DNA of 64,000 nucleotides from Candidatus Daviesbacteria bacterium (GTDB taxonomy: Bacteria > Patescibacteriota > Microgenomatia > Daviesbacterales > UBA10151): the NCBI GenBank assembly GCA_030648645.1, contig JAUSHL010000038.1, positions 3,657 to 67,656 on the forward strand. The letters are read 5' to 3'. The notes beneath the pieces were generated by a model. The model was not told the origin of the DNA. It worked only from the letters and a program-made list of their open reading frames with translations, and searched no databases. Positions 5,170 to 63,342 of the stretch are shown here, piece by piece. Position 1 is the first letter of the stretch. Every line of letters begins with the position of its first letter. The position numbers and the translations under genes are program-made.

Positions 5170-6270
5170 TCAACTTAGATTCACCGGCATTATAATATAT
5201 TGTAACCCCTCTTCTCCAATTGGTTTAATTAAAGTCGCAGATAAAATCCCGGAAAATTCCATTACTACCTTTGTGGTATTTAAATTAGAAAAAGCATCAA
5301 TTAAAAACTTAGTATTAAAAGCAATAGCAATATCTTCTCCCTCTTTTTCTGCTTCAAATTGTTTTTCCTGACTCCCCAACTCTTTTGCCTCAGAACTTAA
5401 AATAATTTTTCCCTCCAGACAATTTAATTTAACAATATTGGCTTCATTTCGGGAAAACACAGCTGCCAATTTTACTGCTTTCAAAAATCCACTTCTGTCT
5501 AAAATAACTTTAGTAATTACTTTTTCCGGAATAATTTTTTCCCAAGCCGGAAATTGTCCTTCAATCAAGCGGGAGGATACTTGGGTATTACCAAAAGAAA
5601 AAATCATTTGATTATTATCTTCCGACACGGCAATTTTAACCAAATCAGCAGAATCTTCTGAAATTAAACGGACAATTTCTTCAAAAGTCCTCTTTGGCAC
5701 TAAAGCTTTAAAAGAAGATGTTTCGGCAATCGGCACAATTTTATGTGCCAGACGATAACCGTCGGTGGCAACCAATTGTAGTTTTTTATCTTTTATCTCC
5801 GTTAAAATTCCGGTTAAAGTTGGTCTGCCATCATCCATGGCGGCGGCAAAAATAATTTCCGGCAAAGATTTAACTAAAATTTCCGATTCAATTGAAACTG
5901 TATCTTTCCCAAGTAAAGGAATTGATGGAAATTCCAAAGCCGAAATACCGTTTAATTTGGAAGAAAAAGTCGGAGTAGAAATTTCTATTTGATCATTACT
6001 TCCACTTATTTCAATTTTTTCACCTGATAAATTAGCAATTACTTCCACAAAAGTTTTAGCCGGCACTGTCACTTCTCCTTCTTCTAAAATTTCGGCATTA
6101 ATAAATTTTACTACGCCAATTTCTAAGTTTGTGGAAGAAAGTTTTAATTTTCCGGAAGAAGCCTGAACTAAAACATTGCCCAAAACCGGAAGTTGTGCAC
6201 GCACACCAGTTGATCTGGCGACAGCTTGCAGTGTGGGTATTAAATCCTGTTGTAAGATTATAAATTTCAT
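5170..6270 (-). CDS. dnaN: DNA polymerase III beta subunit (sliding clamp)
   Basis: N-terminus MKFIILQQDLIPTLQAVARSTGVRAQLPVLGNVLV typical of DnaN; 366 aa; adjacent to dnaA. Confidence 0.9.
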   Translation of the reverse strand: MKFIILQQDLIPTLQAVARSTGVRAQLPVLGNVLVQASSGKLKLSSTNLEIGVVKFINAEILEEGEVTVPAKTFVEVIANLSGEKIEISGSNDQIEISTPTFSSKLNGISALEFPSIPLLGKDTVSIESEILVKSLPEIIFAAAMDDGRPTLTGILTEIKDKKLQLVATDGYRLAHKIVPIAETSSFKALVPKRTFEEIVRLISEDSADLVKIAVSEDNNQMIFSFGNTQVSSRLIEGQFPAWEKIIPEKVITKVILDRSGFLKAVKLAAVFSRNEANIVKLNCLEGKIILSSEAKELGSQEKQFEAEKEGEDIAIAFNTKFLIDAFSNLNTTKVVMEFSGILSATLIKPIGEEGLQYIIMPVNLS

Positions 6271-6354
6271 ATTTTTATAATGAGTATAATTTTAAATTTT
6301 AAATTTTAAATTTTAAAATTGCTTTAAAATTTTAATTTTGGATTTTAAAATTAC

Positions 6355-6816
6355 TCATTTTCCTCTGGTGACAAACCCATGTACTTCTTCTTCACTAACT
6401 TTAATCAATCTAAAATTAACTCTCCCGGTTGTAATTAGGTTTTTAATGTGTTTTTCCTCTTCTGTCAAGACATGAAAATTTCCTGACTTTACTTCAATAA
6501 AATCAATTCTCTCATTATTTTTAATACCAATAAAATCTACAGGCTGACCTAAAGGAATAATCCGGTCATAATCATATCTAAGTTCAGCATAAGTTAAAAG
6601 CTCAGCCATTTTCCCCTTTTGCGGATTAATTGATCCCTGAATAGTTTGCAATACTCTGGCTGGTAAATCCTGTAATCCTTTGTACAGATCAATTAAATCA
6701 GTTGGAATATCACTCCCACCCTTGCGGTGAAGCCTGCCAAACAAATAAGCTACCAATAAGGCTAAAATACCTATTAAAATGTAAATAAAAGTTTGATCCA
6801 TTGTTAGTTTGTCCAC
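6355..6816 (-). CDS. membrane-anchored protein with putative PD-(D/E)xK nuclease-like fold
   Basis: N-terminal TM helix; PVDFIGI...(11 aa)...DFIEVKSG resembles D...(D/E)xK core of Hjc/Mrr-like nucleases; sits between dnaA and dnaN. Confidence 0.3.
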   Translation of the reverse strand: MDKLTMDQTFIYILIGILALLVAYLFGRLHRKGGSDIPTDLIDLYKGLQDLPARVLQTIQGSINPQKGKMAELLTYAELRYDYDRIIPLGQPVDFIGIKNNERIDFIEVKSGNFHVLTEEEKHIKNLITTGRVNFRLIKVSEEEVHGFVTRGK

Positions 6817-7124
6817 ATAGAGCCTGAACTACTTTTTGTAATTAATAAAATAGTAGTAGTATTTATAGGCAGTGTTGATAAGTGTATAAATAGGGTATAT
6901 TTATGAGTAATTGATTGGTGGATAAGCATAGAATCATTTTACAGCTTCAACGAACAACAAACAACAGTCTGTTTACTCTCGAGCTTTTGTCTTATTTTCG
7001 TGTGTAAAAAGTATAGTCAACTTGGGGATAAGTTAGTGGATAACTTCATGTGTAATGTGGAAAACTCTGGAAGAATGAAGAATGAAGAATGAAGAATGAA
7101 GAATTAAGAATTAAGAATTAAGAA
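6808..7124. promoter_or_regulatory. dnaA-dnaN intergenic region with a cluster of DnaA-box-like 9-mers; candidate oriC segment
   Basis: TTGTCCACA (6808-6816), TGTTGATAA (6873-6881, reverse of TTATCAACA), GTGGATAAG (~6919), GGGATAAG (~7025), TGGATAAC (~7037); AT-rich; heptamer tandem repeat at 7071-7127. Confidence 0.6.
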
Positions 7125-7127
7125 TTA
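7071..7127. repeat. 7-nt tandem repeat (AAGAATG x3 then AAGAATT x4) abutting dnaA stop codon
   Basis: Directly visible: gaagaatgaagaatgaagaatgaagaattaagaattaagaattaagaatta. Confidence 0.9.
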
Positions 7128-8459
7128 ATCCAATAATTTTTGCTTTATCTCTCCAATAATTTTTTGAATTTCACTGTCTGTATTTAAAATTACCCCAATT
7201 TTTTCTACGCCGTGCATAATAGTTGTGTGATCTCTTCCTCCCAACATTTCACCGATCTTTTCATAAGGTAGTTTACAGTCTTGATATAAGATATACATAG
7301 CAATCTGACGGGATCTGACGAGATCTTTTTTACGGTTTGGTCCCACTAAATCTGCCATTTTAATATCAAAATATTGATTAATACCGGCTAAAACCTTTTT
7401 TTGATCAATTTTAAAGCCACTGGTTACACTTACTTTTCCCAACAGAAATCGGACATTTTCCTCATTAAATTCTTTCCCTGTGAGTTTTAAGGTTTGAATA
7501 ATCTGCATTAATTTACCTTCTAACTCACGCCCATTGGTAGAGATATTTTCAGCAATTAAAGTTAAACAATTTTCCGGAATATCATCCCCTTTTTCCTTAC
7601 ATTTAGCCTTTAAAATTGCGACCCTAGTATCAAAATCAGGAAGTTGAATATCAACCATCATTCCTCCCTGAAAACGGGAAGCCAAACGGGGTTCTAATTT
7701 CTGAATTTCATGAGGAGGACGGTCGGCTGTGACAATAATTTGGATATTTTTACCTTGTAGATCATTAAAAGTGTGAAAAAATTCTTCCTGTGTTGAATCA
7801 CGGCCGGATAAAAATTGGACATCATCAATTAGTAATAAATTACAGCTCCTATATTTAGTTCTAAATTGGGTCATACTTTTGGTCTGAATCCCCTGTACTA
7901 AATCATTGGTAAATTGCTCCAGTGGTGAGTAAATTATTTTTAAATTAGGATTTTTTTTAAGAAGAGCGTGTCCTACACCGACCATTAAATGAGTCTTTCC
8001 TACTCCGGTTCCGCCATATAAAAATAAAGGATTGTAAGAAAGTCCGGGATTGGCAATGACAGCTTGGGCTGCAGCATAGGCTAGATTGTTAGAAAGTCCA
8101 ACCACAAAATTCTCCAGAGAATATTTGGGATTTAAGTTGGTAATATTAGTTTTTGGGGTACTGGAAAATAAATTTAGTTCAAAATTATCATCTTCCGGAT
8201 TTTCTTCAGAGCGAGATTTAGTACTGCTCACTCTCAAATCAATTGGAATGGGCTTACCTAGGATCTGTTTTACAGCTTCTTCTAATACATCCTGATGTTT
8301 AGTATGGATTTCCTGCTTGATAAAATGAGTTGCTACAAAAATCACAAATTTTCCATCCACTTCCCCATCACAACTAGCCTTAGCAAACCACATTTTGTAA
8401 TTTATCGGAGAAACCTGATCTTTTATTATTTCCAGTACTTTATGCCATTCTTTATTCAT
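7125..8459 (-). CDS. dnaA: chromosomal replication initiator protein DnaA
   Basis: AAA+ Walker A GGTGVGKTHL, DnaA box-binding C-terminal domain; 444 aa; followed by dnaN. Confidence 0.95.
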   Translation of the reverse strand: MNKEWHKVLEIIKDQVSPINYKMWFAKASCDGEVDGKFVIFVATHFIKQEIHTKHQDVLEEAVKQILGKPIPIDLRVSSTKSRSEENPEDDNFELNLFSSTPKTNITNLNPKYSLENFVVGLSNNLAYAAAQAVIANPGLSYNPLFLYGGTGVGKTHLMVGVGHALLKKNPNLKIIYSPLEQFTNDLVQGIQTKSMTQFRTKYRSCNLLLIDDVQFLSGRDSTQEEFFHTFNDLQGKNIQIIVTADRPPHEIQKLEPRLASRFQGGMMVDIQLPDFDTRVAILKAKCKEKGDDIPENCLTLIAENISTNGRELEGKLMQIIQTLKLTGKEFNEENVRFLLGKVSVTSGFKIDQKKVLAGINQYFDIKMADLVGPNRKKDLVRSRQIAMYILYQDCKLPYEKIGEMLGGRDHTTIMHGVEKIGVILNTDSEIQKIIGEIKQKLLD

Positions 8460-8647: not shown

Positions 8648-9298
8648 ATGACAAATAATGATTTAGTTTATGGATTTTTAGACGAGTCTCCTAATTTACA
8701 GGATAAATTTGCTTTCTTTTCAGTAGTTATTATATTAAGCACTAACCCAGATGAGAAAAGTTATAGATCAATTTTTAAAAAAACTCGCAAGAATGTTCTT
8801 AAAAAGAAACAGAAAGAAATCCCTGAATTAAAGTTTGCCAATTCTACTCCTCAAGTAAGAATTAAAATACTGAAGGCCATTGGTAAAAGATCTATTAAAA
8901 TATCTGCTTATATTTTGGATAAAGCAGGAAGACGTATACCAGATACGCCTGAAAATTATGGTATTGTGGCTGGTTTTGCGATTAGTGAGGTATTAAAGAA
9001 ATACCCTGTTATTGTTTTAACTTTTGATAAAAAATATACCAAAGTTAAAGATCAAGAAGAAGTGGAGAGAGTAACATTAAAAGTTGTAGCTAAAGTTTTA
9101 AAGAAAGGTGTATTACAGTTTAAGGAGCATGGTGATAGCAAAGCAAACAGTATACTTCAAATGGCAGATTTTGTAGCTGGGGCAGTAAGTTATAAATACA
9201 ATTTGAATGATAAGAGCTACTGGGAGTTGATAAAGGATTTAATTGAACAGGAAAATAAGGAATCATGGATAGATATTAAAGCAATTTATAAGCAATAA
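8648..9298 (+). CDS. DUF3800-like protein (accessory cassette gene)
   Basis: N-terminal VYGFLDESPN resembles the Y-x-DESG signature of DUF3800; bracketed by repeat modules. Confidence 0.3.
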   Translation: MTNNDLVYGFLDESPNLQDKFAFFSVVIILSTNPDEKSYRSIFKKTRKNVLKKKQKEIPELKFANSTPQVRIKILKAIGKRSIKISAYILDKAGRRIPDTPENYGIVAGFAISEVLKKYPVIVLTFDKKYTKVKDQEEVERVTLKVVAKVLKKGVLQFKEHGDSKANSILQMADFVAGAVSYKYNLNDKSYWELIKDLIEQENKESWIDIKAIYKQ

Positions 9299-9485
9299 AA
9301 AAGAATAGTCAATCCCTGGGCTCCGATTCTCACCGCCTTTTTCGAGGGTAAACCCCGATGGGTCTACTTTGCACGGAATAAGACCGCTATTGCTGGACTA
9401 GAGATCCCAGGACTTACTCGACTATTCTTGATTAAGATTGTACCAAATTTTCACCAATTTTTCAAGGCCCAGATTTTAAAATAAC

Positions 9486-18185: not shown

Positions 18186-18317
18186 TGTCATCCCGGACTT
18201 CGTCCAAAGGACGATCAGCCTTTGGCTGATGATCCGGGATCCATGAATTTATTTATATAGATTCCTGCCCCTCGGTCCTGAGTCCCTCGGGATCGAAGGA
18301 CTTTCGCAGGAATGACA
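18186..18317. mobile_element. MITE-like element, subfamily 2 (tgtcatcccgg...caggaatgaca)
   Basis: First 60 bp nearly identical to the copy inside valS at 21304-21388. Confidence 0.6.
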
Positions 18318-18359: not shown

Positions 18360-19124
18360 ATGGATAGAATAGCTTTAAAAGCGGAAGAACGGGAAATATT
18401 GGGTAAAAAAGTTAAAAACCTTCGAAGTCAGGGTTTAATTCCGGCCCACGTTTTCGGAAAGGGACTTCAAACAGAGCATGTTACAGTAAGTGCTTTAGAA
18501 TTTAAAAAAGTTTATGACCAAGCCGGAGAAACCGGTTTGATTGATTTAAAGATCGGGGCAGAAAAAATCAGACCGGTGTTGATTCGGGGTGTTCAACTGG
18601 ATCCGGTCAGAGATAATCTTTTACACATTGATTTTTATCAAGTTAATTTATCGGTGAAAGTTAAAGTATTTGTACCGATTGAAATTATTGGGGAAGAGGC
18701 AGAAGCAGTACATACAGGGGAAGCTGTGGTTATTCAGCCAATGTCAGAGATTGAAGTTGAAGCTTTACCTGCCGATTTGCCGGAAAAAATTACTGTGGAT
18801 ATTACCTCACTTAAAGCAATTGATGATGCAATTTTAGTTTCCGGTTTATCTGTACCGGAGGGGGTGACAATTTTAGCCGAACCTGAAGCAGTGGTGGTAA
18901 AGCTTGATAGCGCAGTAACTGAAGAAATGAAGAGATTATTGGAAGAGCAAGCTGCTGAAGCTGCGGCGGCAGCTGCTGCACAGGCTCCTGCCGAAGGAGA
19001 ACCCGCCTCCGCTGAAGCTACGGCGGGCAAGGAAGCAGAGGGAGAAAAAGGTGCACAAGTTTCAACTGAGGCTGAACCCGCCTCCGCTGAAGCTACGGTG
19101 GGCAAGGAAGAAACTCCTGAATAA
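18360..19124 (+). CDS. rplY: 50S ribosomal protein L25 / general stress protein Ctc with Ala/Glu-rich C-terminal extension
   Basis: N-terminal L25 fold sequence ...REILGKKVKNLRSQGLIPAHVFGKG...; tail contains tandem EPASAEAT.GKE repeat. Confidence 0.85.
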   Translation: MDRIALKAEEREILGKKVKNLRSQGLIPAHVFGKGLQTEHVTVSALEFKKVYDQAGETGLIDLKIGAEKIRPVLIRGVQLDPVRDNLLHIDFYQVNLSVKVKVFVPIEIIGEEAEAVHTGEAVVIQPMSEIEVEALPADLPEKITVDITSLKAIDDAILVSGLSVPEGVTILAEPEAVVVKLDSAVTEEMKRLLEEQAAEAAAAAAAQAPAEGEPASAEATAGKEAEGEKGAQVSTEAEPASAEATVGKEETPE

Positions 19125-19223: not shown

Positions 19224-19751
19224 ATGGAAGGTTATAAAAAGTTGGCAAGCTATATTTTAGCTACAGTGATTCATGATTTAACTGCTATATTTGTTAAACG
19301 TTGGATAAGTCCATATTCCCGGACAACAGATCAAATGGAACAGGCAGCCAGATCCGGTAAACAAAATATTGCCGAAGGGTATACAGTCCAAAGCCTGGAG
19401 AGTTATATAAAACTTTGTGGAGTAGCTGAAGGCTCAATTAAAGAACTGGCAATTGATTTTGAAGATTTTTTAAGACAAAGAGGATATTCTATTTGGGATA
19501 AGAATGATGAAAGAGTTAGGGGATTTAGGGCTTTTAGGGCTGTTTGGAAAATACCTAATATCCCCAATACCCCAAATTTACCTAATAATCCTGAAGAAGC
19601 AGCAAATATGCTTTTAACTTTTTGCCAGATGGAGTCTTTTCTTCTTCATAGGCAAATTGAAGCTTTAAGAAATAAGTTTATTTCAGAGGGTGGTTTTAGA
19701 GAAAATTTATTCAAAGAAAGGTTGATAGAAAAGAAAAAGCAAATTAGATAG
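19224..19751 (+). CDS. four-helix-bundle protein of the 23S rRNA intervening-sequence-encoded family (TIGR02436-like), with C-terminal extension
   Basis: MEGYKKLASYILATVIHDLTAIFVKRW...EQAARSGKQNIAEGY resembles IVS-protein family; here free-standing. Confidence 0.45.
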   Translation: MEGYKKLASYILATVIHDLTAIFVKRWISPYSRTTDQMEQAARSGKQNIAEGYTVQSLESYIKLCGVAEGSIKELAIDFEDFLRQRGYSIWDKNDERVRGFRAFRAVWKIPNIPNTPNLPNNPEEAANMLLTFCQMESFLLHRQIEALRNKFISEGGFRENLFKERLIEKKKQIR

Positions 19752-21996
19752 TTTTTGGCCAATTTTTAGTCATAATAGATTCTCCTGGAGCTATCTTTTG
19801 CCATAACTCTTCTGATAAAAAAGGCATAAAAGGATGGAGGAGCTTTAAGCAGGTTTGGAAAACATATTCTAAAACTGGTTGAGCCTCAGCTCTTCTGTCT
19901 TTGCTTTTTTCAATATAAACATCAGCAAACTTATGCCAGATAAATTCATATAATGTTTCTGTGGCCAGATGAAGCTGGAAGGATTCTAAATTTTTGGTCA
20001 CATCATTAATAGTTTTGTTTAGTTCTTCTAGTATTTTTTTATTATCGATATGAGATTGCTTCTCCGGCAATTGCCGGATCGCAATGACGTCAGTGCCGAG
20101 CGTTGTTGAAATGTCATTGCGAGGAGCCGTAGGCGACGTGGCAATCTCTTTTGGTTTTAGTTCATAAATAAATCTGTAAATATTTTTTATCTTTGTCCCA
20201 AAGTTCCGGTAATTTCTGCATCTTTCATCTATTATTTGTCGGGAGGTTCTGCCATCACGGCCGGGGGCAGAGTAGGAATAGAGTGCCATGCGGGTAGCAT
20301 CTACTCCCCACAGTTGTACCAAATCATAAGGATTAATACCATTGCCTAATGATTTGGAAAACTTTTTTCCATCTATTCCTCTGAGTGTTCCATGGAAAAA
20401 CATGTTTTTAAAAGGAATACTATCCTTAAACCAAAGACTTAACATAATTTGGCGGGCAATCCAAAGGTATTTAATCTCCGGAGCAGTTAGTTCAAAATCC
20501 CAGGGGAAGTATTTTTCCAATTCATCAGATTTGTCAGGTTTACCCTCCGAAGCTTTAGCGGAGGAGGGCCAATTAAGTGTAGATAAGGGCCACATTCCGG
20601 AAGAAAACCAAGTGTCTAAAACTTTCTCTTCCTGCACCCAGTCTTCTCCAGGTGAGTCTTTTGATACTTGTATTTGATTCCCTTTGTACCATATCGGTAT
20701 ACGGTGTCCCCACCAAAGATTGCGTGAGATACACCAATCATGAATTCCACTTAGCCAGTCTCCCAGAATTTTGTCATAGTTTTTGGGTAAAAAGTTGATT
20801 TTATCTAAATTCTTTAAAGCTTTTTCTGCCAATGGTTTCATTTTGATAAACCATTCCTCGGAGATTAAAGGCTCAACAGTAGTTTTGCATCTTTCGCAAA
20901 CAGGGACTGAATGAGTATATTCTTCTACTTTTTCGATTGTTCCATTTTGTTCTAAAATTTCAGCAACTTTTGCTCGGGCCTCGGCAATTTTTAAACCCTG
21001 CAAATCTCCGGCTAGATCAGTCATTTTTCCTAATTTATCAATGGCATGTAAAATCGGAAGGTTATGATCTTTGCCGATGGCAAAGTCCAAAGGATCATGA
21101 CCGGGGGTAATTTTTAAAGCCCCAGTCCCAAAATCTTTTTCAACACGGGTATCTTCAAAAATTGGGATTTGATTATTGTTTAATGGATTGATGGCAAATT
21201 TTCCAATAAATTTGGCAAATTTTGGATGATTGGGAAAAACTGCAATACCGCAATCTGCATAAATTGTTTCCGGACGGGCGGTGGCAATAGTAATAAATTG
21301 ATCTGTCATCCCGTACTTCGTCCAAAAGACGATCAGCCTTTGGCTGATGATACGGGATCCATGGATTCCCGCTTCCGCGGGAATGACATTATTGTTTTGT
21401 ATTTGATATTTAACATAATAAAGCTTTTCTTTTCTTTCCTCATATTCCATTTCCACATCTTCAATGGCAGTGTTGCATTTGGGACACCACTCTACAATAT
21501 AAGCCCCTTTATAAATTAAATCTTGCTCCCACAAAGTTTTAAATTCTACAAAAGTGGCTTGTTGAATTTTGGGATCCAAGGTAAAAACTTCTCTTGACCA
21601 GTCAGCCGAAATACCTAAAAAAGTCCAGGTGTTATGAAAAGAATTATAAATTTTTTCTTTAAATTTCCAAGCCCTTTTCATCCAACTATCATATCCTAAC
21701 TTTTGTTTGGAAAGATTTTCTTTGGCCAGTTCTTTGTTAAAAGTTGATTCAAAAATAATGCCGGCATGATCAACCCCCGGTAATAATAAAACATCAAATC
21801 CTTGCATTCGTTTGAAACGGGCAACTGCATCCAAAATTGATTGTTGCATAGCATGACCGAGGTGCAAATCTCCATTGACATTGGGTGGAGGCATTAAAAG
21901 GGAATAAGGTTTTTTAGAAGACTTAGGATCTGCTTTAAACAGCCCCGCCTTTTCCCAGAAATCATACAATTTTTGTTCTGAAGTTTGTTCATCCAT
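19744..21996 (-). CDS. valS: valine--tRNA ligase (short form) carrying two in-frame repeat-element insertions
   Basis: HIGH-type motif PPPNVNGDLHLGHA, KMSKS-type KFSKSLGN, editing-domain region WCPKCNTAIEDVEME; insertions at 20052-20148 and 21304-21388. Confidence 0.8.
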   Translation of the reverse strand: MDEQTSEQKLYDFWEKAGLFKADPKSSKKPYSLLMPPPNVNGDLHLGHAMQQSILDAVARFKRMQGFDVLLLPGVDHAGIIFESTFNKELAKENLSKQKLGYDSWMKRAWKFKEKIYNSFHNTWTFLGISADWSREVFTLDPKIQQATFVEFKTLWEQDLIYKGAYIVEWCPKCNTAIEDVEMEYEERKEKLYYVKYQIQNNNVIPAEAGIHGSRIISQRLIVFWTKYGMTDQFITIATARPETIYADCGIAVFPNHPKFAKFIGKFAINPLNNNQIPIFEDTRVEKDFGTGALKITPGHDPLDFAIGKDHNLPILHAIDKLGKMTDLAGDLQGLKIAEARAKVAEILEQNGTIEKVEEYTHSVPVCERCKTTVEPLISEEWFIKMKPLAEKALKNLDKINFLPKNYDKILGDWLSGIHDWCISRNLWWGHRIPIWYKGNQIQVSKDSPGEDWVQEEKVLDTWFSSGMWPLSTLNWPSSAKASEGKPDKSDELEKYFPWDFELTAPEIKYLWIARQIMLSLWFKDSIPFKNMFFHGTLRGIDGKKFSKSLGNGINPYDLVQLWGVDATRMALYSYSAPGRDGRTSRQIIDERCRNYRNFGTKIKNIYRFIYELKPKEIATSPTAPRNDISTTLGTDVIAIRQLPEKQSHIDNKKILEELNKTINDVTKNLESFQLHLATETLYEFIWHKFADVYIEKSKDRRAEAQPVLEYVFQTCLKLLHPFMPFLSEELWQKIAPGESIMTKNWPKTI

Positions 21997-22028: not shown

Positions 22029-23348
22029 TCAATCAGAAAGAGAGATGTTAGGGTTTGCTTGTAGTTTGATTGGTTCAATTGGGTGATAGTTGTATAAAGC
22101 ACTAGTTGCAATATAGACAGCATTATCGGTACAAAGCTTGGGGGTAGGAATAGAAATTCGCACATTCATCTTTTTTTGCAAAGATTGTGCCACAAGCTTT
22201 TTGGCAAGAATTTGGTTGGCTGCAACTCCTCCTGCAACCAAAATTTGTTCAACTTTAAATGTTTGGACGGCTTTTAAAGTTTTGGCAACTAAAACATCGG
22301 TGATTGCTTCTTGGATAGAGGCTGAGAGGTTTGATATTTCTTGGGATTGCTTCTCCGGCAATTGCCGGATCGCAATGACATTGTTCTTCTTGTCATCGCG
22401 AGGAGTGTTAACGACGAAGCGATCTCTTGCAATATTTGAAATTGCAGTTTTTAAACCGGAAAAAGAAAAATCCCAGCCATAGGCTGGTCCGCCTTTGGCG
22501 GAAAAATTTCCATTCTCCAGCATTGGTCGGGGTAGTGGATATGCTTTGGGATTTCCTTTTTCTGCCATTTTTGAAATGGACGGACCTCCGGGATAAGGTA
22601 AACCCAGTAGCCTGGCAGATTTATCAAAACATTCACCGGCAGCATCGTCACGGGTTCCACCTAAATATTTATATTTACCATGATCTGTCATTAAAATTAA
22701 ATCTGTATGACCTCCTGAAACAAGAAGACCAATGGCGGGGAAGGTGGGTACTGTAAAATTGTCATTGCGAGGAAGGTCGATACTTCGACCCGGCGCGGCA
22801 ATCTTATTAATTGATTTGGCAGATTGTTTCGCGGAGTTTACGCTGAGATTGCTTCGCTCTGCTCGCAATGACGTCGAAGTGTTCGCAATGACAGGAGAAA
22901 TCCAATTTGCATAAAAATGACCCAGTAAGTGATTCACCGGTATTAATGGTTTATTCCAAACAGTTGCCAGAACTTTAGCAGTTTCTACTCCCACAAGGAG
23001 AGAACCAATTAGCCCCGGACCTTCGGTAACAGCAATGGCATCGATAGATTTTATTATCTCTTTATTGTCATGCTGAACTTGTTTCAGCATCTTGTCTGTG
23101 GATCCCGAAATAAATTCGGGATGACACTTTGCTTGAGTAAGTGCTTCCTGAATGACGGGAATAATGGATTTTAATTGTTCACGGGCTGCCTGTTCCGGGA
23201 TCACACCGCCGAATTTAGCTTGTAACTCAGCCGAGGATGCCACAATATTGGACAATATCGTTACTCGTTTCTCGTCACTCGCCACGATAGCACAAGCTGT
23301 CTCATCACAGGATGACTCAATTCCTAAAATGATACGGGGATTTTTCAT
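22029..23348 (-). CDS. tsaD: tRNA N6-adenosine threonylcarbamoyltransferase TsaD (Kae1/Gcp family) carrying two in-frame repeat-element insertions
   Basis: N-terminus ILGIESSCDETACAIV, HLLGHFYAN and LVSGGHT motifs; 439 aa vs ~340 typical; insertions at 22345-22436 and 22760-22893. Confidence 0.85.
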   Translation of the reverse strand: MKNPRIILGIESSCDETACAIVASDEKRVTILSNIVASSAELQAKFGGVIPEQAAREQLKSIIPVIQEALTQAKCHPEFISGSTDKMLKQVQHDNKEIIKSIDAIAVTEGPGLIGSLLVGVETAKVLATVWNKPLIPVNHLLGHFYANWISPVIANTSTSLRAERSNLSVNSAKQSAKSINKIAAPGRSIDLPRNDNFTVPTFPAIGLLVSGGHTDLILMTDHGKYKYLGGTRDDAAGECFDKSARLLGLPYPGGPSISKMAEKGNPKAYPLPRPMLENGNFSAKGGPAYGWDFSFSGLKTAISNIARDRFVVNTPRDDKKNNVIAIRQLPEKQSQEISNLSASIQEAITDVLVAKTLKAVQTFKVEQILVAGGVAANQILAKKLVAQSLQKKMNVRISIPTPKLCTDNAVYIATSALYNYHPIEPIKLQANPNISLSD

Positions 23349-28203: not shown

Positions 28204-28243
28204 AACGAAAAAATAGAAACTAATTAGTTCTTCTCATAGAGTT

Positions 28244-28322
28244 TGTCATTCCGAGTGCATCCGAGGAATCTTCCGTCTTAAGCGGGAAGATTGCCACGCT
28301 CACTATGTTCGCTCGCAATGAC
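28244..28322. mobile_element. MITE-like element (tgtcattccgag...ctcgcaatgac)
   Basis: Termini match the MITE family. Confidence 0.55.
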
Positions 28323-28360
28323 ATTAATGGGAAATACTAAATAGTTGCCAAAATAGGTAT

Positions 28361-34443: not shown

Positions 34444-34719
34444 ATGAGCATGTTAAAACAAACTACTAAAGTTTTAGAGTATGAATTACCAATTAAAATA
34501 ACTCCTCAGAAAGAAGGAGGGTTTGTAGTAACTTGTCCTGTTTGGTCTACCTGTTATGCTCAGGGAGAAACTGTGGAAGAGGCTGTATTAGAAGCTACTG
34601 CTGTAGCTCAATCACTAATTGAAATTTACAAAGAAGAAGGTTTAAAAATTCCTCTTAAGAAGCAAGAAGAAAAAAGAATGGAAATGTCATTTAATGTTCC
34701 TGTTATTGTGGCTGCATGA
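34444..34719 (+). CDS. hicB: HicB-family antitoxin
   Basis: UPF0150/HicB-like ...GGFVVTCPVWSTCYAQGETVEEAVLEA... Confidence 0.6.
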   Translation: MSMLKQTTKVLEYELPIKITPQKEGGFVVTCPVWSTCYAQGETVEEAVLEATAVAQSLIEIYKEEGLKIPLKKQEEKRMEMSFNVPVIVAA

Positions 34720-34934
34720 TTTACAGACCCTTATCTTACCGGGAGGTAATTAAAAAGGCTCGCAAAGCAGGTTTTGTGTTTCGCCGAAATACTGGTGGTA
34801 CTCATGAGATTTGGTGGAATGAGGAAAAGAAAAAAACTTGTGTTATTCCCCATCATCATGAAATCAAAGCAGGAACATTGAAGAGTATTATTAATCAAAT
34901 GGGCTTAAAATCGGAAGAATTTGAAAAACTTTAA
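34716..34934 (+). CDS. hicA: HicA-family mRNA interferase toxin
   Basis: YREVIKKARKAGFVFRRNTGGTHEIWW; 4-nt overlap with hicB. Confidence 0.6.
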   Translation: MIYRPLSYREVIKKARKAGFVFRRNTGGTHEIWWNEEKKKTCVIPHHHEIKAGTLKSIINQMGLKSEEFEKL

Positions 34935-35135
34935 AATAATTTATGAATTGGGCAAGCGCTTTACAATCAGGACAGAAAATAGTACTGGCGACTTCTTCAA
35001 AGGATAGTAAACCACATGGAAATAAAAGAAGTTTTGATCTTGATAAAAAGGAAAAAGTTTTTTAGTAGATGATAACAAAAAATCAATGGGACAAAACTCA
35101 GCTATAGCTTAATGTTGTCCCACTGAATTTAATAG

Positions 35136-35163
35136 TTGACATATGTAAGATTTTATGTATAAT
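35136..35163 (+). promoter_or_regulatory. sigma70-like promoter TTGACA-16-TATAAT for the phd/relE-like pair
   Basis: ttgacatatgtaagattttatgtataat followed by AGGAG ribosome-binding site and ATG at 35185. Confidence 0.5.
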
Positions 35164-35184
35164 TATATGTAGGAGATTATATAT

Positions 35185-35463
35185 ATGAATATACCTTTAG
35201 GAAATTATGTTTCTGTGTCTGATGTGCAAAGGGATTACCGCAGAGTCTTTGACAAGGCTAAAAAAACTAAACAAACAGTTATGGTTCTTCGCGACAACAA
35301 GCCTGATGTAGGTGTGGTTGACGCAAAAATATTAATGGAAAGAGAAAAAAGATTAGAAGAGTTGGAAATTGAGGATGCCTTAAGAGCAGTTAAAGAAGGA
35401 GAAGAAGAATATCGGACTGGAAAAATTATAAAAGCAAAATCTTTAGCTGATTTACTTAAATGA
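35185..35463 (+). CDS. Phd/YefM-family antitoxin
   Basis: N-terminal Phd/YefM-like sequence; acidic C-terminus; overlaps toxin gene. Confidence 0.55.
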   Translation: MNIPLGNYVSVSDVQRDYRRVFDKAKKTKQTVMVLRDNKPDVGVVDAKILMEREKRLEELEIEDALRAVKEGEEEYRTGKIIKAKSLADLLK

Positions 35464-35723
35464 TCATTAAAATAAATTATGCTAAAAGATTTCTTCGCGC
35501 TTTTAAAAAATTAACTCCGAATAAACAACAACTAGCTATCGAAAGAGAAAAAATTTTTATAAAAGATCCATTTTCTTTAACACTGAAAACTCATAAATTA
35601 TCAGGAGAGCTGAAAGAATACTGGTCTTTTTCTATTACATATCAAGATAGGGTAATGTTTCGTTTTGTAAATGATCATGAGGTGATTTTTTATAGAATTG
35701 GTAGCCATGATATTTATAAATAA
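35460..35723 (+). CDS. RelE/ParE-family toxin
   Basis: C-terminal ...RVMFRFVNDHEVIFYRIGSHDIYK matches RelE/ParE consensus tail. Confidence 0.6.
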   Translation: MIIKINYAKRFLRAFKKLTPNKQQLAIEREKIFIKDPFSLTLKTHKLSGELKEYWSFSITYQDRVMFRFVNDHEVIFYRIGSHDIYK

Positions 35724-35734
35724 AACATATGCAG

Positions 35735-35835
35735 TACCAATTTAGTGGACGACCCGCCGGCTAACGCCTGAGCGCCCGCCCGCTTCGATATGCGAAGCAT
35801 TTCGTGCAGGTAGCGATGGCGGGCAGGTCGCATCA
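35735..35835. other. GC-rich (~65%) nested-hairpin element between convergent genes; candidate structured ncRNA or MITE
   Basis: Outer stem taccaatt/aattggta, inner GC stems (gacgacccgccgg / cggcgggcaggtcgc, gcttcg-atat-gcgaagc). Confidence 0.4.
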
Positions 35836-36558
35836 TGAATTGGTATGGAAAACACGTTTAGTAAATTTTTTAAAAATTCTCAATTGATCAGTGTTTGTTT
35901 GAAGATATAAATTCATTATATTGTCTACTCTCAAAATTATTTCTGCTGTGGCAGGATTTTTATTGGAAATACTATTATTTAACTCATAATATAAAGTTGC
36001 AGTTGGATTATTGGGTTTTATATTTAACATGGTGTATCTGAAATATCCTGTTTTATCTACAGAAATAAAATTATGAATTTTTTCATTTCTTTGTCTGTAA
36101 TCTAAAGGTTTTTTATCAAAACTTATTTCCAGCTTGTTTATATCCGGATCAGAAATATAATAAGTAATTTGTAATATTTCATCATTTATTTTTATTTCGC
36201 GTTGATAGGCAAAAGGGTTTGGTTTTGTTGTTTTTTTATCCTGTAATAATTTATCAATAATTAATTGTCTTAAAGTTTTGATTCTATTGAAGGTTTGCAG
36301 TTTTTCAGCATCTATAATATTTTGTTGTTCTTGGAGAACCGTTTTTTCTTCGAAGGTTTCAAGAAATGTACTTACGGGAACATTGGTATCTAAACACAAC
36401 CATGTTTCAACTTGTTCAATAATTTTTGTATAGGCAGTTATCGGGGTATAGGGTTGACCAATGGAGGTAGAAAATCGTTTACTTTCAACTAAAACTTCCA
36501 GATATTTTAATCTGTCATTAAAAGTTGGTTGACCAGTTGTTTCTTTTTCCTGCAACAT
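35833..36558 (-). CDS. hypothetical protein
   Basis: ORF track only; last codons lie inside the GC-rich element. Confidence 0.3.
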   Translation of the reverse strand: MLQEKETTGQPTFNDRLKYLEVLVESKRFSTSIGQPYTPITAYTKIIEQVETWLCLDTNVPVSTFLETFEEKTVLQEQQNIIDAEKLQTFNRIKTLRQLIIDKLLQDKKTTKPNPFAYQREIKINDEILQITYYISDPDINKLEISFDKKPLDYRQRNEKIHNFISVDKTGYFRYTMLNIKPNNPTATLYYELNNSISNKNPATAEIILRVDNIMNLYLQTNTDQLRIFKKFTKRVFHTNS

Positions 36559-39554: not shown

Positions 39555-39704
39555 AGGTCATCCTGAGCGTAGTCGAAGGATTGATGACTTAATGGCAATA
39601 GTGGAGTGAGATTGCTTCTCCGCCAGTTGGCGGATCGCAATGACGCCAGCACTGAGTGTAGTTGAAGTGTCATTGCGAGGAGCCGAAGGCGACGTGGCAA
39701 TCTA
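39555..39704. mobile_element. MITE-like element immediately downstream of groES
   Basis: gaggtcatcctgagcg ... gagattgcttctccgccagttggcggatcgcaatgac ... gtcattgcgaggagccgaaggcgacgtggcaatct. Confidence 0.6.
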
Positions 39705-39722
39705 TGAAAAAGGGAGAAAAAT

Positions 39723-44475: not shown

Positions 44476-44643
44476 TTAAACTTCCACAAAAGCTCTAATA
44501 GCTTTTTCTGTGTTCTCATAAGCTTCTTTTTTAGTTTTACCCTGTGACATACATCCATATAAATTTACCACATCAGACACATAACCTTTATAGTCCTTGT
44601 CATAAGTCAATTTAATTATGTAATCCAATTTGTCGTGTCTCAT
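44476..44643 (-). CDS. small HicB-like (UPF0150) protein, 55 aa, absent from the ORF track; orphan
   Basis: Translates to MRHDKLDYIIKLTYDKDYKGYVSDVVNLYGCMSQGKTKKEAYENTEKAIRAFVEV; pattern Y.A..E.D.dGGY....P.LPGC.SQGDT.eEA..N..EAI. Confidence 0.35.
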   Translation of the reverse strand: MRHDKLDYIIKLTYDKDYKGYVSDVVNLYGCMSQGKTKKEAYENTEKAIRAFVEV

Positions 44644-45220
44644 CTTTCAATTATACCATCAAATTTCAATATGGTATACTAAAAAGGTGAACACTTCGAA
44701 GCTCAGTGCAAGTCAAAAAGGTTTCGCTACCATTTTAATTTTGGTTGGAATATTGGTAATAGTAGCAGTAGTTGGTGGGACATATTATTTTGATAAATTC
44801 CAAATTTCTAAATCTCAGCCTCAAAGTTCAGTGGCACAAGCCGTGCAGCCGACTATTGTTTTACAACCTACATTAGCAACGAATAACCTGAACACGAATG
44901 AATTGCAAGGGTTTCCAGCTTATCCTAATGCTATCTATATAGGAAAACAACCTATTGTTCCTTGTAGTAACGGCACTGAGCAAAATGGATTCAGTACATG
45001 TAATGCTGTGATTTATTCATGGAAAACATCAGACGATTATGATCAAGTAATACTCTATTATAGAAATAAAGAGTGGTTGTGTGGTGGAGCTGGTTCATAT
45101 GATGGACCAAGGAGTGCTTCTGGGGGAGGTAATAATTGTACCAAGAATAATAGGCGTTTTGGGACTTTTTTTGATGCTTCTGCTAAAGAAACGAAGATAG
45201 ATTTTGCACTATACCCTTAA
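44630..45220 (+). CDS. secreted protein with prepilin-like N-terminus (KG/FATILILVG...); true start probably downstream of the annotated ATG
   Basis: SQKGFATILILVGILVIVAVVGG resembles class III signal peptide but lacks Glu at +5; annotated start overlaps the HicB-like ORF. Confidence 0.3.
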   Translation: MSCLIFQLYHQISIWYTKKVNTSKLSASQKGFATILILVGILVIVAVVGGTYYFDKFQISKSQPQSSVAQAVQPTIVLQPTLATNNLNTNELQGFPAYPNAIYIGKQPIVPCSNGTEQNGFSTCNAVIYSWKTSDDYDQVILYYRNKEWLCGGAGSYDGPRSASGGGNNCTKNNRRFGTFFDASAKETKIDFALYP

Positions 45221-45314
45221 CTCATCAAATTCTTTCCACTTTTAGATTCAACTAATGATCACTACAAGTAAACTTACTCAGTAAATCACAAACTCTTGGA
45301 CGGCCACATCATAA

Positions 45315-45404
45315 ATATCACACCCTTGTGTGTCATATCACACCCCAAGGGTGTGATATGACACACCCTTGGGGTGTGATATGACATTGGGGTGTGATAT
45401 GACA
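45315..45404. repeat. array of 15-16-bp repeats GGGTGTGATATGACA (one inverted pair followed by direct copies)
   Basis: atatcacaccc, tgtcatatcacacccc, gggtgtgatatgaca, ggggtgtgatatgaca, ggggtgtgatatgaca in 90 bp. Confidence 0.85.
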
Positions 45405-45500
45405 AAGGATTAATTTCATACCAATTGCTTGGACGATCGTACACTAAATTGGTTTAACTTTTTCTAATCTTTCAAACTGGTATAATAGATGTAATCTTTT

Positions 45501-54192: not shown

Positions 54193-54575
54193 GGTATGTC
54201 CGTAGTGTCGGCTTCAGCTTCAGCTTTAGTTTTATGGATAACTCCATCCTTGTGATTTGCTGGGCTATAAATTGTGTAAAGTTTTAGTCCGGTACCTCCT
54301 GCGATCACATTATGTTGTGTGCCTGCTGGAACGACGATTGCAAATCCATCGGAAATTTGATGTTGCTCACCATTCATTACAACTTTTCCGGATCCTTTTT
54401 CTATCCTAAAAAATTGGTCAACATTTTCGTGCATTTCCATACCAATTTCCTTATTCGGATTAAGGCTCATTAAAACAAGTTGTGAATGTGGCGCGGTGAA
54501 AATTACTTTTCGGAAATTATCGTTACCTAAAGTGTCAGTGTCTATATTGGTTACAAATCCTGCCATTAAATTCAC
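54189..54575 (-). CDS. cupin-domain protein
   Basis: Cupin_2-like ...GFAIVVPAGTQHNVI... Confidence 0.55.
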   Translation of the reverse strand: MNLMAGFVTNIDTDTLGNDNFRKVIFTAPHSQLVLMSLNPNKEIGMEMHENVDQFFRIEKGSGKVVMNGEQHQISDGFAIVVPAGTQHNVIAGGTGLKLYTIYSPANHKDGVIHKTKAEAEADTTDIP

Positions 54576-54748
54576 CCCCTTTAGAAGTTCAGTATATCAT
54601 GTTGGGTATTTTTAAATGGTTCCATATTTATAATTTATACATATGCTTGAAACATACCAAAATTTCGCTGGAGCGAATAATTGGTATGAAATATATAAAT
54701 ATCATTCTCACTGATTTTAAATTATAATTAGCTAGAATTTACTAAAGT

Positions 54749-62244: not shown

Positions 62245-63342
62245 TCAAACTTCGTTTATTAACCTAAGAAGTAATAATTTTAGTGGCATAAATTTTTCAA
62301 CTATATTAAATAAAATATAAATTGGCCAATTTAAAATTAAATCATAAGTTCCAATATATTCTATAAGTTCGGCACCCAACCCTCCTTTAAATTTAGTAAA
62401 TCCAAAATAAGAATCTTTTTCTCCTTTACTGAGATCTGCTGCTCCCCAAAGATCAAATTTTTTTAATCCCAATTTTTTACCCAATCTGATGGCATCCCAA
62501 GCCAATAAATTAGATGACATTACATTACGGTGTAATTCTGATGAGCCACCATAAGGATAATATAATGTATCTTTAAAATTTATTAACATCCAAGCGGTTA
62601 AAGGAATTTTTTCATAATAAGCAACTAATACTCTAACCATATTTTCTTTTTTCAGAGATTGCCAGACTGATTTGTGATAACTCATATTGTGTCCATGATA
62701 GCCTTGTCGTTTGGTAGTATCGAAATATAATTTTATGTAATCTGCAAAAAGCTGATCATCTGTGCCTTCTTTGATTATGACTTCATGTTTTTTTGCTACC
62801 TTGATGTTATATCTAAATTTTTGATGCATGTTTTGTAAAATTTCATCTTCGGATTTGGTTAAATCTAAAACATAATTGAATTTGGTAAAAAGTGGTTTAG
62901 GCGATGGTTTAAATTTTTTTGATATCAATGTGTTGTCATTGCGAGGAGCTCCGGCAGAGCCGGACGACGAAGCAATCTCTGTTTCAGATTGCTTCTCCGG
63001 CAATTGCCGGATCGCAATGACATCAGGTTCAATCTTAATGAAGGCACAATTATTTTCTTTGCCAATTTGTGTTAGGGCTTTGGCCAAATTTTTATCAGGA
63101 AATGGGCCTTTTGGTAAATATCCTACAAAATATTTTGTCAGAGGAATTTTATGAAAAGTAATTTGAAAAGCAGTTACTAATTGATTATTTTCAAAAAGAC
63201 CATATCTTTTTAATTTTGTATCCAAACTTTTTCTAAACTGCCCCCAAGCCCATGATTGCATGAGATGAGATACTGATTTATTGTAAATATTTTTTTCTTT
63301 TTCAGTAATTTCTCGCAAGTCCATAGCTGAATTATATATCAA
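62245..63342 (-). CDS. FemAB-family peptidoglycan aminoacyltransferase (FemX-like) carrying an in-frame repeat element
   Basis: ...HLMQSWAWGQFRKS...YLPKGPF... FemAB signature; insertion PDVIAIRQLPEKQSETEIASSSGSAGAPRNDNTLIS from 62934-63021. Confidence 0.6.
   Translation of the reverse strand: MIYNSAMDLREITEKEKNIYNKSVSHLMQSWAWGQFRKSLDTKLKRYGLFENNQLVTAFQITFHKIPLTKYFVGYLPKGPFPDKNLAKALTQIGKENNCAFIKIEPDVIAIRQLPEKQSETEIASSSGSAGAPRNDNTLISKKFKPSPKPLFTKFNYVLDLTKSEDEILQNMHQKFRYNIKVAKKHEVIIKEGTDDQLFADYIKLYFDTTKRQGYHGHNMSYHKSVWQSLKKENMVRVLVAYYEKIPLTAWMLINFKDTLYYPYGGSSELHRNVMSSNLLAWDAIRLGKKLGLKKFDLWGAADLSKGEKDSYFGFTKFKGGLGAELIEYIGTYDLILNWPIYILFNIVEKFMPLKLLLLRLINEV

Follow-up and report, generated by a model that had tools for sequence, protein, structure and literature searches.

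We found two nested elements at the 3′ end of a gene in a metagenome-assembled genome of Candidatus Daviesbacteria (CPR, Microgenomates): a small two-tier hairpin repeat and, at its apex, a GC-rich segment of 75 nt that is missing from the same site in a related genome, that parsimony favors as an insertion, and that has no relative in the collections searched. The reading that we prefer goes further, and we hold it with about even confidence: the GC-rich segment would be derived from a mobile element, would have entered the hairpin in this lineage only, and would now have a passive role at the 3′ end of the gene. The window, that is, the whole stretch of DNA that was analyzed (64 kb), is AT-rich, with a GC content of 34.1%.

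Anatomy and setting of the composite element

The composite element is located between a Phd/YafQ toxin-antitoxin operon on the plus strand and, convergent with it, a gene for a 241-aa protein on the minus strand, which is followed on that strand by murB and then purA. The preliminary description of this DNA had singled out a GC-rich island between convergent genes, and the island proved to be sharp, since the GC content was 61.4% over 35735-35835 and 67.9% over the 84-nt core (35748-35831) versus 34.1% in the window and 27-29% in the flanks. The features of the locus are as follows.

35185-35463, plus strand: Phd/YefM-type antitoxin gene (ORFs and Pfam)
35460-35723, plus strand: YafQ/RelE-like toxin gene, the convergent neighbor, ending 11 nt before the left arm of the element (Pfam and ORFs)
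35734-35744: left arm of the outer stem, with the 8-mer TACCAATT at 35735-42; it pairs with 35836-35846, is the same in the orthologous contig L001 and is common to paralog B
35748-35831: 84-nt GC-rich imperfect hairpin, composed of the insertion plus ancestral apical bases; it folds on both strands
~35751-35825: GC-rich insertion of 75 nt (67% GC), placed to within about ±3 nt as a single 75-column gap in the MAFFT alignment with L001
35753-58 and 35775-80 (within 35753-35784), plus strand: two direct CCCGCC boxes (repeat search)
35782-35798: perfect apical hairpin GCTTCG-ATATG-CGAAGC, with arms at 35782-87 and 35793-98 and a 5-nt loop
35833-35835, minus strand: TGA stop of ORF 35833-36558, in the internal loop that separates the core from the outer arm
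35836-35851: right arm of the outer stem plus conserved flank, with AATTGGTA at 35838-45 (fold and comparison with L001)
35833-36558, minus strand: gene for the 241-aa protein, without a Pfam family; its last four codons are within the hairpin arm

The full structure covers 35734-35846 and is closed by an outer stem of 11 bp (35734-44 with 35836-46), which on the plus strand includes two G-U pairs. The 8-bp outer stem noticed earlier was recovered with its two partners, TACCAATT and AATTGGTA, but its right arm was found at 35838-35845, ten bases past the boundary first drawn for the element at 35835. On the minus strand, this right arm reads TTTCCATACCAATT and codes for F-H-T-N-S of the 241-aa ORF. 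It had been thought to supply the last codons together with the stop of this gene; the codons for H, T, N and S indeed lie in the arm, but the TGA belongs to the internal loop. The extended stem-loop falls in both 3′ untranslated regions, since it begins 11 nt past the toxin stop on one strand and reaches into the last codons of the 241-aa gene on the opposite strand. The 241-aa protein is 100% identical to the NCBI protein Q7R97_04850 and has only one or two homologs among 5.8 billion proteins, one of which, P0002, is 55% identical to it.

The insertion carries CCCGCC and GGCGGG at its ends, a 6-bp inverted repeat, and contains short internal direct repeats. On the plus strand it forms a rod of ~27 bp whose pairing is broken at 1x1 mismatches and at a larger internal loop, and on this strand CGACC (35750-54) pairs with GGTCG (35826-30), which formerly made up the apical loop GGUC(G) of the short form of the hairpin. 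Both CCCGCC boxes are able to pair with the single GGCGGG at 35818-23, which gives rise to alternative pairings, and since the two boxes compete for one partner, the minimum-energy folds on the two strands differ. The perfect apical hairpin reported before is present, with ATATG as its loop.

Folding strength was evaluated for the whole element, for the core and for the insert. The whole element (111 nt) folds with -48.9 kcal/mol on the plus strand and -49.5 kcal/mol on the minus strand; a regression of folding energy on GC content across the window predicts -31.8, and the element is ~3.2 sd more stable than that, with z values against shuffles of -2.9 and -3.5. The 84-nt core alone reached -38.4 kcal/mol on the plus strand (z -2.06, with 8 of 200 shuffles as stable) and -41.9 kcal/mol on the minus strand (z -2.74), and the self-complementarity of the 75-nt insert as DNA was not above that of mononucleotide shuffles (p ~0.47). 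In the window-wide folding scan, five other loci were more stable, which places the element roughly sixth. These data indicated that the folding and palindromy of the GC-rich core are only marginally above chance for its composition.

The orthologous site and the hairpin family

The homologous protein P0002 comes from the Logan contig L001 (3.3 kb), in which purA, murB and the gene in question follow one another in the same order. Across murB and the 241-aa gene, the window and L001 share 74.7% DNA identity, and P0002 ends in FHTNS*, as does the 241-aa protein. At the end of its gene L001 carries the hairpin ataccaatt catgatgcgacc gcacacta aattggtat, which has the same outer stem and a short interior of 20 nt. 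MAFFT placed one clean gap of 75 columns in L001, between identical flanks of 27 nt (ttttccataccaattcatgatgcgacc) and 13 nt. Since L001 has no core and yet keeps the outer stem and the final codons of the gene, neither of them is part of the GC-rich piece, and the core represents an indel at the tip of a hairpin that already existed. A filled and an empty site were found in related genomes between conserved flanks, and paralog B, described below, agrees with the empty site of L001.

The gene end together with the first 55 nt of the insert was also found, identical, in L020, an independent Logan assembly from another run whose contig stops inside the insert. The insert does not, therefore, depend on a single assembler. 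Four more contigs, L012, L013, L014 and L065, were reached through their MurB neighbors and examined for the orthologous site; they come from more distant relatives, none has the hairpin, and they provided no further outgroup. Downstream of murB, L012 and L014 encode a 213-aa homolog with ~20% identity, in which the C-terminal 50 residues are missing; this position is without a gene in L013, and L065 has a 227-aa gene and no hairpin.

Relatives of the outer hairpin were found within the window itself, where paralog B emerged from the folding scan (45230-45500) and provided an outgroup for deciding between insertion and deletion. The copies and candidate copies are the following.

45413-45457, plus strand: paralog B, a short hairpin without the GC-rich core, TTCATACCAATT GCTTGG ACGATCGT ACACTA AATTGGTTTAA
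54654-54692: possible third member C, CATACCAAAATT TCGC TGGA GCGA ATAATTGGTATG, with the same two-tier design (z -6.1)
54434-47: solo arm TTTCCATACCAATT

Paralog B and the composite element have an exact 10-mer, CATACCAATT, and an exact 12-mer, CACTAAATTGGT, in common. B aligned with the short hairpin of L001 without a gap (31/43 positions identical), and when the L001 hairpin alone was used as an nhmmer query, B was its only non-orthologous match, with an E value of 0.0023. C shares the 14-mer ATTTCATACCAATT with B and matched the family profile weakly (E 0.36). With two mismatches or fewer, the arm motif occurs 8 times versus 2.1 expected. At least one of these occurrences, the copy of ATTTCATACCAATT at 523-536, lies within a coding N terminus and was not counted as a family member. 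In IMG/VR, the hairpin pattern gave 24 matches, all of which belonged to one homologous phage coding segment, and they were set aside as a single chance resemblance. The outer hairpin thus has 2-3 copies in 64 kb, which share a layout in which the AT-rich outer stem (CATACCAATT / AATTGGTATG) leads through a small internal loop to a palindromic center that is short and GC-rich. The center is CGACCG in L001, CGATCG in B and TCGC-TGGA-GCGA in C, the consensus for the short form being CGAYCG. This small hairpin repeat has apparently not been described before.

The family also gives the indel a direction. L001 and B are both short and align to each other without gaps, and with two short copies against one long copy, insertion into the composite copy is favored. 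Deletion is less parsimonious because it would need two independent precise events. Moreover, the short form is unlike a deletion scar, as the hairpins of L001 (z -5.6) and C (z -6.1) are well formed. From these sequences, which amount to one ortholog and one paralog with an E value of only 0.0023, the insertion direction appears to be modestly supported.

The history that we propose begins with a two-tier hairpin repeat of ~40-45 nt where the 241-aa gene ends; it provides the last four codons of this gene and was already in place in the common ancestor of the window genome and L001. A segment of 75 nt and 67% GC would then have been inserted at the dyad center of this hairpin, in the lineage of the window genome only, so that an apical mini-hairpin of 4 bp would have grown into the imperfect GC-rich hairpin of 84 nt.

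Origin of the GC-rich insert

Relatives of the core were searched for at several scales. In the 64-kb window, neither blastn (word size 7) nor pattern searches yielded a second copy; the element had been called isolated, and this holds for the core, but the outer stem has its paralog at 45413-45457. Searching ~137 kb of related Daviesbacteria loci by nhmmer, with the core and with the hairpin profile, returned only L001 and L020. Among k-mers of the core searched in IMG/VR, CCCGCCCGCTTCGNNNNGCGAAGC and ACCCGCCGGCTAACGCCT had 0 matches each, GGTAGCGATGGCGGGCAG had 1 chance match and GCGCCCGCCCGCTTCGAT had 4; the core 19-mer GCGAAGCATTTCGTGCAGG gave 9 matches in JGI metagenomes, all by chance, and the core 20-mer CCGGCTAACGCCTGAGCGCC gave 1 chance match in the GTDB species genomes. 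The hosts of these public k-mer matches were GC-rich and the flanks unrelated. Plasmid and phage collections yielded only chance matches by blastn. At the protein level, six-frame peptides of the element, joined as one query, had no match at an E value of ≤10 among 5.8 billion proteins, and a 40-aa ORF on the minus strand had 0 phmmer matches among 1.84 billion representatives. This tiny ORF stays in frame owing to the 75-nt length of the insert and is probably meaningless. As a positive control, an 18-mer of the window's other GC-rich repeat retrieved 17 IMG/VR contigs, and 17 of 17 were true full-length units, which indicates that a widespread family of the core would have been detected. Among the collections searched, no source of the insert DNA was identified and relatives of it were absent.

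In the reading that we prefer, the insert would most likely derive from a small, non-autonomous element that forms hairpins, akin to REP, MITE or "GC cluster" sequences, either as its solitary copy or as a remnant of it, and the landing site would be the exposed center of a palindrome. The preliminary description had offered a distinct mobile element as one of two possibilities; the filled and empty sites and the lineage-specific insertion of 75 nt speak for it, but no second copy was found, and its mobility is what we infer from these sites. A Pfam scan of 38 window ORFs revealed no transposase or integrase, Y1/RAYT included.

The lack of another copy in any search would also be expected if the core were one-off, non-mobile DNA with neither a family nor a function, either filler taken up when a break at the tip of the hairpin was repaired or the outcome of in situ palindrome growth by template switching or duplication. 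In line with such an origin, the insert carries short internal direct repeats, no convincing target-site duplication was found at its junctions, and the GACC at its 5′ end pairs, as its reverse complement, with the GGTC of the former apical loop. When the insert was aligned with the ancestral hairpin and compared with shuffles, neither direct nor inverted similarity was significant (p 0.72 and 0.15, respectively), and growth of the palindrome in situ cannot therefore explain most of the insert, GACC being the exception. Besides, a template of 67% GC was not at hand locally, the flanks having 27-29% GC. Captured foreign DNA, on the other hand, is indistinguishable from a solitary mobile-element copy on the present data. 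All in all, we consider a one-off origin somewhat unlikely.

A bolder version of the preferred history would make the two-tier hairpin repeat (CATACCAATT ... CGAYCG ... AATTGGTATG), which CPR genomes of this lineage may carry, a landing pad at its dyad center for a separate, nested GC-rich module that targets hairpins. Such a module would be non-autonomous and lack a known transposase; given that the last four codons and the stop region of one gene already come from the hairpin, it could reshape gene 3′ ends. We regard this version as unlikely.

The preliminary description had also considered a small structured RNA, and the core could accordingly be read as a lineage-specific small RNA gene or a cis-acting RNA element, acting, for example, on the toxin-antitoxin operon or on the mRNA of the 241-aa protein. 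A GC-rich island in an AT-rich genome is often the mark of a structural RNA; here both strands fold stably, the two CCCGCC boxes facing one GGCGGG box permit alternative pairings, and G-U pairs extend the outer stem on the plus strand only. The searches nonetheless spoke against an RNA. Rfam at the gathering score gave nothing at the element, its only match in the window being DUF3800-III at 9302-9428, and at an E value of ≤10 only four weak, irrelevant matches were obtained over 35600-35980; ARAGORN called no tRNA or tmRNA. Neither the only ortholog nor the paralog has the core, its fold is only marginally above shuffles, and no promoter-like site placed to drive it was found. Covariation had been suggested as the check, with the absence of homologs bearing compensatory changes counting against an RNA, and no search returned a homolog of the core that could carry such changes. 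We thus consider an RNA quite unlikely. For RNA-gene prediction in AT-rich genomes, this case is a caution that a GC-rich, well-folding island is insufficient, as this one is gone in the nearest relative. Readings of the element as SRP RNA, a tRNA-like structure, a hammerhead or attC were dropped after inspection of the sequence by eye, the defining motifs being absent.

Just as doubtful is a history in which the long GC-rich form came first, under selection as a bidirectional terminator or 3′-end stabilizer, and in which L001 lost the top of the hairpin by palindrome-stimulated deletion. Long palindromes are known to be deletion prone, as passages of PMC3733652 also state, and the indel is centered on the dyad, as expected from cleavage of a hairpin tip followed by rejoining; the site also lies between convergent genes with a spacer, unlike most convergent pairs of the window. 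Against this stand the well-formed two-tier hairpin of L001 and the paralog B, which is also short and ungapped against it. An ancestral stretch of 67% GC in a 34% GC genome would, in addition, have needed constant selection, yet it would have been dispensable in the sister lineage. As for a terminator, a U-tract directly after the stem was absent on both strands, the nearest T-runs beginning ≥8 nt after the stem, and a terminator consensus scan called no site.

An assembly artifact is hardly credible: the contig comes from a short-read metagenome-assembled genome and the independent Logan contig breaks within the insert, but a second assembler arrived at an identical gene end followed by an identical first 55 nt of the insert, the junctions are clean with conserved flanks, and the insert is novel sequence rather than an inverted copy of local DNA.

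Known palindromic elements and a candidate role

Passages of PMC3733652 describe REPs as short GC-rich imperfect palindromes just past stop codons, with a preference for intervals between convergent or unidirectional genes, and as folding into larger hairpins that are thought to act as RNA 3′-end stabilizers or terminators. According to the same passages (PMC3733652), REP units measure 20-40 bp, bear a terminal unpaired GTAG/CGTC tag and occur in many copies per genome, the GTAG type being linked to RAYT transposases. The element resembles REP, BIME and REPIN sequences in being GC-rich, hairpin-forming and situated at gene 3′ ends between convergent genes. It is unlike them in that its core is 75-84 nt long and single-copy in everything searched, in that no RAYT (Y1/IS200-like) was found among the 38 ORFs, and in that its GACG and GTAG tetramers are internal to the core and do not form a terminal unpaired tag beside an 8-9 bp stem. 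The outer TACCAATT hairpin, at ~40 nt and with 2-3 copies in 64 kb, comes nearer to REP, although it has no tag and is rich in AT.

By analogy with REP elements, the most reasonable role for the composite element would be that of a passive 3′-end structure or read-through barrier: a stable stem-loop at the shared 3′ ends of two convergent units may protect the ends of their RNAs and hinder read-through from one into the other. In most convergent pairs of the window a spacer is almost absent, so a stem-loop between convergent genes is no general requirement here. The element shares with intrinsic (Rho-independent) terminators a stable GC-rich stem-loop right after the stops of two convergent units; it differs from them in the missing U-tract and in a far longer stem-loop (84-111 nt).

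Insertion into palindromes has precedents elsewhere. IS1397 inserts in the loops of BIMEs in Escherichia coli, and insertions into palindrome centers involve either a full IS, of ~1.4 kb in this case, or MITE families with inverted repeats and target duplications. Like these, the present locus has a second element nested in a pre-existing palindromic repeat; unlike them, its insert is a 75-nt orphan with an inverted repeat of only 6 bp. The hallmarks of MITEs, namely, terminal inverted repeats, target-site duplication and multiple copies, are not displayed by the core.

Integron attC sites are imperfect palindromes at gene 3′ ends, with conserved outer boxes and a center of variable length, and toxin-antitoxin genes are often near them. 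The element is similar in that it is an imperfect palindrome at a gene 3′ end, its center varies in length and toxin-antitoxin genes are nearby, but its outer arms, TACCAATT and AATTGGTA, lack the RYYYAAC...GTTRRRY boxes and there is only one internal GTTAGCC-like site. The genes, furthermore, are convergent instead of being lined up in one direction as in a cassette array, and the ORFs that were scanned included no integrase.

In yeast mitochondria, GC clusters, like other hairpin-forming elements of organelles, are short GC-rich palindromes in an AT-rich genome that differ in presence and absence between close relatives (PMC4478555). They belong to multi-copy organelle families with documented proliferation and can merge or nest into new elements (PMC4478555). 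The insert is like them a GC-rich hairpin in an AT-rich genome, present in one relative and absent from another, and unlike them it resides in a bacterial host, where no second copy was found. We class the GC-rich core as a solitary new example of an insert of the REP/MITE/"GC cluster" type, although in the sequences searched it does not show the copy number, tags, inverted repeats and target duplication by which these families are defined.

Should the 75-nt module be found at other hairpin centers, it would represent a new bacterial counterpart of the mitochondrial GC clusters. If the proposed history is true, the locus exemplifies how gene 3′ ends may change in the compact AT-rich genomes of the candidate phyla radiation: a hairpin repeat gives a gene its last codons, and a GC-rich insertion then lands in the exact center of that hairpin, which leaves a very stable stem-loop separating the toxin-antitoxin operon from its convergent neighbor. 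The finding is real but ordinary; it would not surprise a specialist and opens no long-standing question.

The window holds a further set of GC-rich repeats, the REP-like "MITE" family, with units GAGATTGC...TCGCAATGAC / GTCATTGCGA...GCAATCTC. The composite element had been said not to share the termini of this family, and we confirmed that GAGATTGC...GCAATGAC / GTCATTGC...GCAATCTC are absent from 35735-35845 and that blastn finds no similarity between the core and the "MITE" units. The two are alike as GC-rich, hairpin-forming inserts at an intergenic site or gene end. The "MITE" units, present as at least three dimers in the window, set a precedent in this same DNA, in which at least one family of GC-rich palindromic units has proliferated.

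The two-tier hairpin repeat and the target's outer stem

The window carries a small two-tier hairpin repeat of the design CATACCAATT ... CGAYCG ... AATTGGTATG, present in 2-3 copies plus a solo arm within the 64 kb, and one copy of this repeat forms the outer stem of the target, the hairpin at 35734-35846 with its GC-rich insert. A search of about 137 kb of loci from more distantly related Daviesbacteria did not recover this repeat.

Occurrences of the two-tier hairpin repeat elsewhere in the window
45413-45457, plus strand, copy (copy B)
54654-54692, possible further copy
54434-54447, solo arm

Two short motifs are doubled around the target's right arm, as listed below, and because the 3′ end of the toxin gene and the right arm each carry these repeats, the left arm TACCAATT has two candidate pairing partners. 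The doubling of GAATTGGTA and ATCATGA may be due to chance or may represent a remnant.

Motifs occurring twice around the right outer arm
35695-35703 (3′ end of the toxin gene) and 35837-35845 (right outer arm), GAATTGGTA
35674-35680 (3′ end of the toxin gene) and 35832-35838 (right outer arm), ATCATGA

An independent Logan contig of the target locus (L020, 930-985) ends within the GC-rich insert, at ...GAAGCGGGCGGG; low coverage could account for this stop, as could an assembly-graph branch arising from a variant or second copy in that metagenome.

No hairpin locus in the window is more stable than the one directly adjoining copy B (45315-45404; −72 kcal/mol per 111 nt), where the 15-mer GGGTGTGATATGACA occurs in 5-6 direct and inverted copies at a spacing of 18-23 nt. 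Together with the ORF 44630-45220, this locus constitutes a lineage-specific insert that separates the M23 peptidase gene from the PEGA/SH3 gene; in the relatives L062, L066, and L068 these two genes are next to each other.

The REP-like repeat

We also observed a GC-rich REP-like repeat of ~40-nt units (GAGATTGC..TCGCAATGAC and the complement GTCATTGCGA..GCAATCTC), which are paired as dimers, either head-to-head or tail-to-tail. Two dimers lie within unbroken ORFs of conserved genes, and in this they resemble the Rickettsia palindromic elements, which are inserted in frame. An 18-mer of the unit matched 17 IMG/VR contigs (51-67% GC), all 17 with full units; the unit is widespread.

REP-like repeats and the ORFs that host dimers
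20054-20155, 62929-63029, and 39603-39709, repeat
near 22755-22810 and 28240-28335, more units
near 18250-18315, variant
19744-21996, host ORF, class-I aminoacyl-tRNA synthetase
62245-63342, host ORF, FemAB gene

Toxin-antitoxin modules and other features

Toxin-antitoxin modules concentrate at 34444-35723, between murB (or the next gene) and a convergent solute-binding-protein gene. Judged by comparison with L012, L014, L062, L065, L066, and L068, this interval is a toxin-antitoxin hot spot: module content differs in each relative compared, with HicAB and Phd/YafQ in the window and HicAB, Phd, PIN/MazE, or YafQ in the relatives. An exact match to the sigma-70 consensus promoter (TTGACA, 16 nt, TATAAT) was located at 35136-35163, 22 nt 5′ of the antitoxin start codon.

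No tRNA genes were found in the whole 64 kb. A DUF3800-III RNA (Rfam RF02962; 52 bits, E 2e-9) was identified on the minus strand at 9302-9428, immediately after a DUF3800 protein gene (8648-9298). At the end of the gene for ribosomal protein L25/TL5 (18360-19124) is a tail (18996-19108) that is GC-rich and rich in Ala/Glu; it has the highest GC of any stretch in the window and contains GAACCCGCCTCCGCTGAAGCTACGG(C/T)GGGCAAGGAAG twice, 75 nt apart. Since dnaN (5170-6270) and dnaA (7125-8459) both lie at 5170-8459, a replication origin is probably close by.
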